DNA from: Gemmataceae bacterium
Lineage (GTDB): Bacteria > Planctomycetota > Planctomycetia > Gemmatales > Gemmataceae
Assembly: GCA_035939715.1 (NCBI GenBank)
Contig: DASZFN010000971.1
Coordinates: 1-10,724, forward strand
Reading direction: 5' to 3'
DNA: 10,724 bases
Position 1 is the stretch's first letter. Every line of letters starts with the position of its first letter. The notes under the pieces were generated by a model, which did no database searches, was not told the DNA's origin, and saw only the letters and a program-made list of their open reading frames with translations. The position numbers were made by a program, and so were the translations under genes. Shown here piece by piece: positions 6,701 through 8,782 of the stretch.

Positions 6701-7327
6701 CCCGCCCTCATTACCGATGATCAAGGCAACGCCGAGCTGCCCGTCAGCTTTGCCGACTCCATCACGACGTGGCGGTTGACCGCTTCCGCCTCTTCGCGAT
6801 CTGGGCTGCTGGGCGGCGTGACTGCTCCCCTGCGAGTCTTCCAGGACTTCTTCGTCGATCTCGATCTACCCGTCACGCTGACGCAGAACGATGAAGTCGC
6901 CTTTCCGGTGGCGGTTTACAACTATCTGAAGACTCCGCAAACCGTGAAGCTGGAACTGCAGCGCGAGTCGTGGTTCGACTTGACCGATTCCGCCGACTAC
7001 ACGCGCTCCCTCGAACTTCAGCTCAATGAAGTGACGGCGGTCAAGTTCCGTATCAAGGCCCGGCGCATCGGCGCCCAGCCGCTCCTCGTGAAAGCCTCCG
7101 GCTCCAAGATGTCCGATGCCATCAAGCGGACCATCGAAGTCGTGCCCGACGGCAGCCGCGTGGAAAAGGTCGTGACCGACCGCCTGACGGGAAAGGTCAT
7201 GCAGGTGATCGAAATTCCGGAAGGCGCCATTGCGGACGCCTCCAAGATTCTCGTGAAGCTCTATCCCGGCGTCTTCAGCCAGGTCATGGAAGGGATGGAA
7301 GGCATGCTGCACATGCCGTTTGGCTGA
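3704..7327 (+). CDS. Alpha-2-macroglobulin family protein, N-terminal segment (signal peptide, MG domains, long bait-position insert, A2M domain), ending at the in-frame TGA on the thioester Cys position
   Basis: 1207-aa ORF. It has an N-terminal hydrophobic signal-like segment ([16 protein letters not shown]) and repeated beta-rich MG-type modules (e.g. [21 protein letters not shown]). [12 protein letters not shown] and [34 protein letters not shown] are hallmark A2M/C3 family motifs. It ends ...[11 protein letters not shown]. Confidence 0.9.
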   Translation: [1207 protein letters not shown]

Positions 7328-8782
7328 ATGGAGCAGACGTCATCCGCGGCCTACCCGAACATCCTGGCCGTGGATTACCTCAAGAAGGCCCGTGTGGCCT
7401 CTCCTCAGATCCTCATGACCGCGGAGAATTACCTGAACGTCGGCTACCAGAAGCTCCTCACGTTTGAACGGCCAGGCGGCGGCTTTGACTGGTGGGGCAG
7501 CGGCCCGCCCATCGTCTGGCTCAGCGCCTACGGCTTGCAAGAATTCAACGACATGGCCAAGGTCTATCCCATCGACCGCGGCGTCATCGACCGCACCCAG
7601 CAATGGCTCATGAAGCAGCGCGAAGCGGACGGCGCCTGGTCCAACATCGGCGCCACGCACAGCGAAACGATCGCCCAGATGGGCAATCCCAAGCTGCTGC
7701 TGACCAGCTACGTGGTCTGGTCCCTGGTTGATAGCGGCATGCGCATTCCCGAGCTGGAGAAATCGATTAACTATATCCGCAAGCACGTGGACGAGGCGGG
7801 CGACAATGCCTACATCCTCGCGCTGGCTGCCAACGCGCTGGCTGCGTGGGATGCCAAGGACGACAGCACCCTCGTGGTCCTGCAAAAACTGGACAAACTC
7901 AAGGCCGCGAAGCCCGAATGGAAAGCGCTCAGCTTCCCGACGCGAGGCCAATCGCTCAGCTATGCGCACGGCGACAGCCTCACGGTGGAGACCACCGCCC
8001 TGGCCGCCCTGGCCATGTTGAAAACGGACCAGTTCACGAACAGCGTCAACGAAGCGCTGACGTTCCTGGTGAAAAGCAAGCAGTCGAACGGCACCTGGGG
8101 AAGCACGTCGGCGACGATTCTATCGCTCAAGGCCCTGGTCGCCGGCATGAGCGGCACGAAACAGGAAGGCAAGGCCGAGTTTGTTATCAAGGTGAACGGC
8201 AAGGAGGCAGGCAAAGGCGAAGTCACCGAGCAAAACGCCGACGTCCTGCAGGCGTTCGACCTCAAGGAATTCACCCAGCCCGGCCACAACGAAGTCCAGA
8301 TCGATGTGAACGGCAAGACCAACCTTATGTACCAGATCGTCGGCCGGCACTTCGAGCCCTGGAAGCTGCAGCCCGGCATTGCCGGTCAGAAGCCGCCGCT
8401 TGAGGTGACCGTCGATTATGACCGCACCAGTCTCTCGACGGCGGACCTGTTGCGCGCCAAGGCAACCTTACGCTACCATGGCGATCGGCCGACCTACATG
8501 GTGATCGTCGATCTCGGCATCGCTCCCGGTTTCACGGTGGACGCCGGCGATTTCGCGGAAATGGTGAGCCAGAAAAAAATCCAGAAGTTCAGCGTCACGG
8601 CCCGCCAGGTGACCCTCTACCTCGGCGACATCAAGCCGGGCGATGTGAAGACGTTTGAGTACAGCCTGAAGCCGAAATACCCGATCAAGGCCAAGACACC
8701 GGCGACCGTGGCATATGAGTATTACACGCCGGCCAACCAGGCGACGGCTCAACCAGTCGAGTTGGTGGTTGGCGACAGATGA
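3704..8782 (+). CDS. Proposed single alpha-2-macroglobulin gene (1692 codons including one internal UGA): candidate selenoprotein, or else a nonsense-interrupted pseudogene
   Basis: 3704 and 7328 are both congruent to 2 mod 3, so a single TGA (7325-7327) separates the two ORFs. The joined length (1207+1+484) is close to known full-length bacterial A2Ms (E. coli YfhM, recalled as about 1650 aa). The domain order is complete only when the two are joined. Confidence 0.6.
6461..6670 (+). other. Gly/Met/Ala/Pro-rich low-complexity bait-like segment of the A2M
   Basis: [66 protein letters not shown] lies immediately N-terminal to FFPETMLW, the position of the bait region in characterised A2Ms. It contains the tandem DNA repeat ggaggcatgggc/ggaggcatgggt/ggcatg at 6509-6538. 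Confidence 0.55.
7325..7327 (+). other. In-frame UGA at the thioester-cysteine position of the G-C-x-E-Q motif (candidate Sec codon / nonsense codon)
   Basis: The translation reads PFG-[TGA]-MEQTSS. The family consensus is G-C-x-E-Q (human A2M GCGEQ, E. coli YfhM CLEQ). The Gln partner is retained. Confidence 0.5.
7328..8782 (+). CDS. Alpha-2-macroglobulin family protein, C-terminal segment (thioester domain from x-E-Q onward plus C-terminal beta domain); probably not an independent gene
   Basis: 484-aa ORF in the same frame as 3704..7327, starting MEQTSSAAYPNILAVDYL (continuation of the CxEQ motif). An alpha/alpha-toroid-like TED region follows (GGFDWWGS..., DGAWSN..., NGTWGSTSATILSLKAL), then a C-terminal beta-sandwich region. 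There is no SD within 5-12 nt of the ATG and no signal peptide. True stop is TGA at 8780-8782. Confidence 0.85.
   Translation: MEQTSSAAYPNILAVDYLKKARVASPQILMTAENYLNVGYQKLLTFERPGGGFDWWGSGPPIVWLSAYGLQEFNDMAKVYPIDRGVIDRTQQWLMKQREADGAWSNIGATHSETIAQMGNPKLLLTSYVVWSLVDSGMRIPELEKSINYIRKHVDEAGDNAYILALAANALAAWDAKDDSTLVVLQKLDKLKAAKPEWKALSFPTRGQSLSYAHGDSLTVETTALAALAMLKTDQFTNSVNEALTFLVKSKQSNGTWGSTSATILSLKALVAGMSGTKQEGKAEFVIKVNGKEAGKGEVTEQNADVLQAFDLKEFTQPGHNEVQIDVNGKTNLMYQIVGRHFEPWKLQPGIAGQKPPLEVTVDYDRTSLSTADLLRAKATLRYHGDRPTYMVIVDLGIAPGFTVDAGDFAEMVSQKKIQKFSVTARQVTLYLGDIKPGDVKTFEYSLKPKYPIKAKTPATVAYEYYTPANQATAQPVELVVGDR
7339..7378 (+). other. mRNA hairpin downstream of the UGA (candidate bacterial SECIS-like element)
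   Basis: 7342-7351 (AUCCGCGGCC) pairs with 7366-7375 (GGCCGUGGAU), giving 10 bp (9 Watson-Crick plus 1 G-U) and a 14-nt loop at 7352-7365. Two further pairs (7339-7340 with 7377-7378) follow a 1x1 mismatch. The structure starts 11 nt after the UGA. Confidence 0.4.

Follow-up and report, generated by a model that had tools for sequence, protein, structure and literature searches.

The stretch of DNA analysed here (referred to as the window; 10,724 nucleotides (nt), contig DASZFN010000971.1 of assembly GCA_035939715.1 from a Gemmataceae bacterium) carries a long gene on its plus strand at positions 3704–8782, which is interrupted by one in-frame TGA codon at 7325–7327. A first-pass annotation made from the letters of the sequence had proposed that this TGA replaces the Cys of the internal thioester in a protein of the alpha-2-macroglobulin (A2M) family and may be decoded as selenocysteine (Sec). 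Its description of the reading frame was confirmed from the sequence and its translation: the open reading frames (ORFs) 3704..7327 and 7328..8782 lie in one frame with the TGA as their sole separator, and reading through this codon yields the product ...EGMLHMPFG-[TGA]-MEQTSSAAYPN. The joined gene comprises 1693 codons; codon 1208 is its only internal TGA, and both TAA and TAG are absent from its interior. The annotation was also right in stating that TGA serves as a true stop in this region, as it terminates both the gene itself (8780–8782) and the neighbouring ORF 9204..9578 on the minus strand. A Shine-Dalgarno-like GGAGG is present at 3694–3698 in front of the start codon at 3704, and nothing similar precedes the ATG at 7328; the lack of a Shine-Dalgarno sequence for the downstream ORF is therefore real, yet it adds little beside the evidence from Phe codons described below. 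The translated sequence starts with a probable signal peptide (3704–3814), and the protein is predicted to be secreted and to have a mass of approximately 185 kDa. In view of the comparative data presented in the following, we consider it very probable that 3704–8782 constitutes one gene, coding for a secreted A2M/thioester protein, in which the UGA at 7325–7327 is recoded as Sec in place of the thioester Cys.

The complete domain order claimed for the joined product of 1692 residues was indeed found by comparison with Pfam, with matches extending from MG2 to A2M_recep across the TGA and all of them above the gathering score. The macroglobulin domains MG2 (4166–4417; PF01835, 4.7e-25) and MG3 (4448–4675; PF17791, 1.2e-06), the bait-region domain A2M_BRD (5186–5602; PF07703, 2.2e-11) and the A2M domain (6686–6958; PF00207, 3.8e-21) are encoded 5' of the TGA. 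The thioester-containing domain (TED; TED_complement, 7331–8140; PF07678, 5.7e-38) and the receptor-binding-type C-terminal domain (A2M_recep, 8492–8749; PF07677, 3.3e-12) follow 3' of it, and the TED_complement match begins at position 31 of the 312 profile positions, immediately behind the TGA. The bait-region and A2M domains are separated by a long insert (approximately residues 634–994) without any Pfam domain across it, which may represent an extended or unusual bait. Within this insert, we observed a low-complexity stretch rich in Gly, Met, Ala and Pro (6479–6592). No NCBIfam model was found for either half of the protein, the sole match being a sub-threshold squalene-cyclase repeat.

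The position of the TGA within the thioester motif was assessed by a phmmer search against PDB sequences, which returned 43 sequences at E ≤ 1e-5. As proposed before, the TGA sits on the thioester Cys: an X placed at this codon falls into the Cys column of CD109 (MPYG-C-GEQ), A2ML1 (MPSG-C-GEQ) and TEP1 (VPTG-C-GEQ), and human A2M and C3d were further matches. The TED is nearest to these eukaryote-type proteins, with CD109 first (1e-22) and A2ML1, TEP1, A2M and C3 after it. The following codons (7328–7336) code for M-E-Q, the remainder of the CxEQ motif, whose Gln (7334–7336) aligns with the acyl partner of the thioester. The E-Q of this motif is invariant at all of the 80 loci described below, with either M or F at the x position. 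In addition, the His encoded at 7658–7660, residue 111 after the proposed Sec, aligns with VIHSE of CD109 and YHKEM of TEP1 and thus occupies the position of the catalytic histidine of C3. It also aligns with VIHQEM of C3 itself (C3d sequence), in agreement with the CD109 and TEP1 alignments. A His of this C3 type is kept in 68 of 78 family members. Judged by its sequence, the product of 3704–8782 is a member of the A2M/TEP superfamily.

Compared to the eukaryote-type thioester proteins (A2M, A2ML1, CD109, TEP1, C3/C4), the window protein shows the same order of macroglobulin (MG), bait, A2M, TED and receptor-binding-type domains, a TED that can be aligned end to end with those of CD109, A2ML1, TEP1, A2M and C3d, and the E-Q and His of the warhead in common with CD109/C3-type proteins. 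It differs from them by its bacterial origin, by the long insert with the Gly/Met-rich stretch, by the motif U-M-E-Q or U-F-E-Q of its family instead of C-G-E-Q, and by a UGA (Sec) codon instead of a Cys codon for the nucleophile. The E. coli YfhM/ECAM and Salmonella A2M proteins with their CLEQ thioester are likewise bacterial, exported protease traps of the thioester type, and a protective role is presumably common to them and the window protein; they employ a Cys nucleophile, whereas Sec is proposed here. An assignment to the YfhM/ECAM type was considered and rejected, because the signal peptide of the window protein contains no lipobox Cys, because neither pbpC nor any other syntenic neighbour was found (none of the seven flanking ORFs recurs beside the A2M gene in other genomes), and because no ECAM or Salmonella A2M chain occurs among the 43 PDB matches. 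Consistent with this, the only match to a bMG-type domain in Pfam was a sub-threshold one to bMG3.

To determine which codons occupy the warhead site in other organisms, we scanned one genome per species and obtained 80 loci, of which 38 carry TGA, 34 TGC and 8 TGT; no other codon occurs. The alignment of orthologues suggested by the first-pass annotation thus shows only TGA or a Cys codon at this position, with TGA recurring in independent lineages. Rather than being private to this isolate, the TGA form is spread over at least two phyla, namely in Gemmataceae and other Gemmatales, in other Planctomycetota, in Ca. Uabimicrobium amorphum and in many Chloroflexota (Anaerolineae, Caldilineae). 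Among the carriers, Ca. Uabimicrobium amorphum is a cultured species with a complete genome (strain SRT547; NZ_AP019860.1), and its A2M TGA is located in the region 8,378,064–8,395,473. At the loci with enough sequence, the frame is open for 1150–1600 codons 5' of the site and for about 480 codons 3' of it, which bears out the earlier statement that the downstream half has remained intact. The codon following the TGA is TTT or TTC (Phe) at 27 of the 38 TGA loci, as in L001, which reads ...LPGG TGA TTC GAG CAG..., i.e., U-F-E-Q without any start codon, and the conserved FEQTSS..YPN stays in frame behind TGA-Phe. An ATG directly after the TGA is confined to the Gemmataceae subclade of the window. 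Because Cys forms with C-M-EQ also exist among the 80 loci, the Met after the TGA belongs to the CxEQ motif. An in-frame TGA which alternates with Cys between intact flanks is an accepted in silico signature of selenoproteins.

The same split is visible in protein databases. A search with the downstream ORF retrieved 829 relatives, and among the best 120 of these (70–98% identity) nearly all consist of 480–486 residues and begin with MEQTSS, indicating that they are split at the same site; one relative of 727 residues with GG-C-MEQTSS spans it. We extended this by an exhaustive search of representatives at 50% identity, resulting in 1740 family members at E ≤ 1e-30. The best 150 of these representatives comprise 105 which read through with Cys, one each with His and Ser, and about 30 whose split coincides with the site or lies just behind it. 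The two full-length representatives with His or Ser at the warhead position show that thioester-less variants exist in the family. The first-pass annotation had expected that gene callers would divide a TGA form into two coding sequences, and all fetched TGA-form entries are in fact separate ORFs; those at NCBI have a length of about 480 residues, and one carries the label "hypothetical protein". Not one U occurs in the 327 fetched proteins, and the database proteins extending across the site read Cys.

A rough neighbour-joining tree of the TED to receptor-binding domain (TED-RBD) region showed Sec and Cys forms interleaved with each other, requiring at least 12 changes of state by parsimony. 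One Gemmataceae metagenome-assembled genome (MAG), SMAG_U11579, contains both forms as paralogues (L015 with Sec, L049 with Cys), a constellation which resembles the Sec/Cys isoenzyme pairs used under differing selenium supply. In two further cases, the position in the tree disagrees with the name of the MAG: the A2M of L034 ("Alcaligenaceae") nests in a planctomycete clade and that of L080 ("Desulfobacteraceae") in a mainly Chloroflexota clade, which suggests that the contigs were mis-binned or the genes horizontally transferred.

The possibility of a wrong base call was addressed using independent assemblies. Gene calls on six metagenome contigs include a downstream protein identical to that of the window, and the four contigs that were fetched, originating from four separately assembled JGI samples, proved to be more than 99.9% identical to the window and to match it exactly over the 66-nt site that contains the TGA. 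As TGA is present in four independent assemblies and neither TGC nor TGT was seen in them, an error in base calling or assembly is excluded as far as assemblies can show.

The sequence behind the TGA contains a candidate selenocysteine insertion sequence (SECIS) consisting of two hairpins. Folding of the window revealed hairpin 1 at 7336–7381, with a core stem of 10 base pairs (bp) formed by 7342–7351 and 7366–7375 (AUCCGCGGCC / GGCCGUGGAU), a loop of 14 nt and an outer interrupted stem; the core begins 17 nt after the UGA. Over 21 planctomycete Sec sequences, 87.9% of the cells of its 15-pair helix are paired, compared to 28–44% with slid partners, and seven of the 15 pairs are altered on both sides, values which were reached in none of 500 shuffles. 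The stem sequence of L043 and L048 has been replaced by CCAGGGCG / CGCCCUGG, and the encoded amino acids are changed as well. Sec forms keep 13.2 of the 15 pairs and their Cys relatives 9.5 (p = 7e-8), with folding energies of −20.2 vs. −8.7 kcal/mol, and among synonymous recodings of its peptide, 99.8% fold less stably than hairpin 1 of the window (p = 0.002).

Hairpin 2 follows at 7387–7399 (GGCC-CGUGU-GGCC) and has a small loop with G as its second nucleotide. Its 15-nt sequence (AAGGCCCGTGTGGCC) is invariant in all 17 Sec forms of the Gemmataceae type, whereas synonymous sites nearby vary. Four deep-branching Sec forms contain other hairpins in its place (GACCC-GGC-GGGUC, AACCG-GUU-CGGUU, CACCC-GUC-GGGUG and AGGCC-GGUC-GGUCU), with three of five pairs altered on both sides. 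The folding energies amount to −7.5 kcal/mol in Sec forms vs. −3.3 kcal/mol in Cys forms (p = 6e-7), and a hairpin with G in one of the first two loop positions is present in 21 of 21 Sec forms vs. 6 of 32 Cys forms. In sister pairs differing in state, the stronger structure always belongs to the Sec form. Within the Planctomycetota, the residues which best separate the two states are those at positions 18, 21 and 23 after the site (V18, A21 and V23 in Sec forms). Because these residues (7379–7399) lie within the RNA element, it appears to be the RNA that constrains the peptide, and no adaptation to Sec at the level of the protein or its active site was found among the residues co-varying with the Sec/Cys state.

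The Sec forms of the Chloroflexota contain neither of the planctomycete hairpins, but another one instead (GUACGUC-GGC-GACGUAC) at a distance of 17 nt from the UGA to the loop. Of its seven pairs, 6.7 are kept in Sec forms vs. 2.5 in Cys forms (p = 5e-6). With a 3-nt loop (GGC, GGU or GUU), a stem of 6–7 bp and the spacing of 17 nt, this hairpin complies with the bacterial SECIS (bSECIS) consensus quoted in PMC13188914 as regards loop, stem and spacing. Its stability is borderline, reaching −8.3 kcal/mol for the 7-bp forms and −7.3 kcal/mol on average at a limit of −7.5 kcal/mol. One TGC form from an Anaerolineae MAG (L062; DAOUEC010000162.1, site 7998–8000) is nested in a Sec clade and has kept five of the seven pairs; apparently, Sec was converted to Cys recently in this form and the SECIS persists as a relic. 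In the bSECIS consensus (bSECISearch model; E. coli fdhF), the stem-loop likewise lies within the coding sequence and follows the UGA directly on its 3' side; it consists of a single hairpin, whereas the planctomycete element is in two parts.

Full gene sets for Sec insertion have been reported for Gemmata obscuriglobus, a member of the Gemmataceae, and for Isosphaera pallida (PMC4807772), and selenoproteins are present in Chloroflexi (PMC1794560; PMC13326102). In line with the statement of the first-pass annotation that it knew of no described Sec-containing A2M or thioester-domain protein, macroglobulins, thioester proteins or COG2373 are nowhere named as selenoproteins in the literature searched. 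The catalogue of 119 prokaryotic selenoprotein families of May 2026 (PMC13188914) contains no A2M, TED or thioester-protein entry, and the main texts on deep-Sep (2025) and BSepDB (2026) contain no macroglobulin or thioester-protein selenoprotein. A gene for MsrA, which adjoins on the extended contig L082, was considered as a second selenoprotein and rejected, as it represents a Cys form (GGCFWC).

The bacterial Sec/Cys pairs of FdhA, SelD or peroxiredoxin resemble the present case in the alignment of UGA with Cys, the conserved flanks, the stem-loop downstream and the patchy distribution in the tree. In the window protein, Sec would be part of an acyl-transfer warhead instead of a redox motif of the UxxC or CxxU kind. 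With approximately 1690 residues, the protein is also very large compared to the selenoproteins described in the catalogue, most of which are small and of the thioredoxin fold (PMC13188914). Table 1 of the same catalogue lists a selenoprotein related to the C-terminal part of CTP synthase (glutamine amidotransferase) with the motif GxUxG (PMC13188914). Chemically, no other entry of the catalogue comes closer to the window protein, yet its acyl-enzyme is transient and derived from free glutamine, whereas the window protein would store an intramolecular crosslink to its own Gln for a single use. Going by amidotransferase chemistry, the Sec of the GxUxG protein stands in for a Cys whose usual task is the formation of an acyl (thio)ester with a glutamyl group.

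Several explanations other than a Sec-containing warhead need to be considered for the interrupted frame. The public gene callers annotate two ORFs, which corresponds to an MG-domain protein ending at the TGA and a TED-RBD protein started from the ATG at 7328 by TGA-ATG coupling, and in the window an ATG does directly follow the TGA. However, at the 27 loci with Phe as the next codon, the nearest possible start is located several to about 30 codons further on, past the conserved FEQTSS..YPN, and the C-M-EQ Cys forms make the Met a part of the motif. The ATG at 7328 also lacks the Shine-Dalgarno sequence found at the real start, and its product would possess neither a signal peptide nor a warhead nucleophile of its own. 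Because most TGA forms continue with Phe in the conserved frame and not with a start codon, we rejected the two-gene arrangement as highly improbable. Even less credible, to the point of being negligible, is a recent nonsense mutation creating a pseudogene, a sequencing error or a reassignment of the TGA codon. Although a single base substitution suffices to convert TGC or TGT to TGA, the codon occurs in four assemblies and at 38 loci of two phyla in front of intact downstream ORFs of about 480 codons, and a reassigned code disagrees with only one internal TGA in 1693 codons and with the use of TGA as the stop codon of this and neighbouring genes. These explanations were rejected as contradicted by conservation and stop usage. 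The comparative signature therefore excludes a pseudogene, a private mutation, a split into two genes and a reassigned code.

The UGA may also be read through without Sec, if a near-cognate tRNA inserted Trp, Cys or Arg and the hairpins stimulated the process. Readthrough of a stop codon can generally be favoured by structured RNA on its 3' side, the hairpins found in planctomycetes are unusual for bSECIS elements, and the Sec gene sets are known from related organisms, not from the same genomes. On the other hand, related organisms do possess the Sec machinery, the codon alternates exclusively with Cys at a position needing a Cys-like nucleophile, Trp or Arg would destroy a warhead whose remainder is strictly conserved, and the Chloroflexota hairpin exhibits a canonical G-first loop at the canonical distance, all of which makes near-cognate readthrough quite improbable. 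Somewhat less remote, but still unlikely, is that Sec is inserted without forming a stable selenoester and serves as a redox or metal centre, or that the UGA mainly acts as a switch, with selenium deciding whether a truncated product of the MG domains or the full-length protein is made. Sec insertion in bacteria is often inefficient, and a truncated product is likely made too; moreover, the ester in the window protein is postulated from homology. The invariant E-Q at all 80 loci, in Sec and Cys forms alike, the C3-type His in most family members and the free exchange of Sec and Cys in very similar proteins speak against this explanation; because of these three features, the residue should perform the task of the thioester Cys.

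The proposal of Sec at the A2M warhead is thus supported by the alternation of TGA with Cys, by its breadth of occurrence and by covarying hairpins specific for Sec forms, and judging from these sequence data, Sec is very probably inserted at the TGA at 7325–7327. Several points count against Sec insertion or against the selenoester derived from it. Neither tRNA-Sec nor sel genes were detected in the fetched flanks of about 1 Mb, where none are expected by chance: ARAGORN found no tRNA-Sec in the window or 85 loci, and tblastn with E. coli SelA and SelD gave no match in these flanks, which is uninformative for such a tiny sample of the genomes. The Sec-vs.-Cys statistics given above are not fully corrected for phylogeny, and kinship is addressed by the sister contrasts alone. 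When the complete window was compared with Rfam at E ≤ 1, neither a SECIS nor any other RNA family matched, and the planctomycete element misfits the published single-hairpin bSECIS consensus. By its rules, hairpin 1 is at the canonical distance from the UGA, but its 14-nt loop begins with UA and lacks the G, whereas hairpin 2 has a canonical loop, but is placed 63 nt from the UGA in the linear sequence. Hairpin 1 may serve as a spacer in folded form, and the two-hairpin element may belong to a SECIS class of its own; departures from the model also occur in a subset of genuine bSECIS elements (PMC13188914). Because nearly all known selenoproteins are redox-related (PMC13188914), which also counts in favour of a redox function, there is little precedent for Sec in a non-redox acyl transfer. 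Finally, the formation and stability of a Sec-Gln selenoester inside the TED are assumed by analogy with the thioester. With these points taken into account, we still lean slightly towards the complete proposal, in which Sec and Gln form a selenoester warhead.

The proposed mechanism would start with hairpin 1 (7336–7381) and hairpin 2 (7387–7399) recruiting SelB with Sec-tRNA(Sec) while the UGA is in the A site. After insertion, the selenol would spontaneously attack the carboxamide of the Gln, as in the formation of the thioester of A2M and C3, resulting in a buried selenolactone. This Sec-Gln selenoester would be a 15-membered ring, the analogue of the Cys-Gln thiolactone of A2M and C3, and would remain buried until cleavage of the bait region releases the warhead. 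The glutamyl acyl group would then pass to the attacking protease or to a nearby nucleophile (amine or hydroxyl), possibly via an acyl-imidazole on the conserved His, a route which may apply because the C3-type His is conserved. A Sec trap is expected to fire faster than a Cys trap, because a selenolate is a better leaving group of lower pKa than a thiolate. Selenolates exist in ionised form at neutral pH, and as acyl donors, selenoesters surpass thioesters in reactivity. Extending this to the relatives, we judge it by a narrow measure probable that a widespread A2M-like family of Planctomycetota and Chloroflexota stores a Sec-Gln selenoester, with Sec insertion in planctomycetes occurring via an unusual two-hairpin SECIS.

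If this is true, Sec would act as nucleophile and leaving group in an acyl transfer, beyond its role in redox active sites, and the warhead would be the first reported natural selenolactone crosslink in a protein. The window protein would thereby join two known kinds of proteins, thioester proteins and selenoproteins, and be unusual among the latter for the non-redox role of selenium. The many closely related Sec/Cys pairs represent a natural experiment on how the identity of the chalcogen affects formation, stability and firing of the warhead, with a bearing on the mechanism of complement and A2M as well as on selenoester ligation chemistry, and the planctomycete two-hairpin element could represent a bacterial SECIS of a new class. 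The analysis also exposes a systematic annotation error, since in the fetched data, the TGA-form members appear as pairs of ORFs without any relation to each other, of which the downstream one is called "hypothetical protein" or has no name. Because Ca. Uabimicrobium amorphum is cultured, the claim is directly testable in a carrier of the TGA form.

Besides the gene for the A2M-like protein, the window contains some further features. An antisense ORF of 777 codons (4109–6442, minus strand) lies wholly within its coding region and is most likely a by-product of the GC content of 60%, not a gene. Directly downstream of the A2M gene, there is a run of small minus-strand ORFs (8800–9578), which continues on the extended contig L082 (7277–8272). 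The ORFs 8800–9207 and 9204–9578 (DUF5678) overlap by 4 nt, and a DUF433 ORF is next in the contig calls; this run may be a toxin-antitoxin-like module and is not syntenic with the A2M gene in other genomes. On the other side, the minus-strand region 963–3284, which appears to be unrelated to the A2M gene, codes for an SPFH/Band_7 protein of 570 residues, followed closely by an ORF of 197 residues without a Pfam match, an arrangement reminiscent of an SPFH-NfeD pair.

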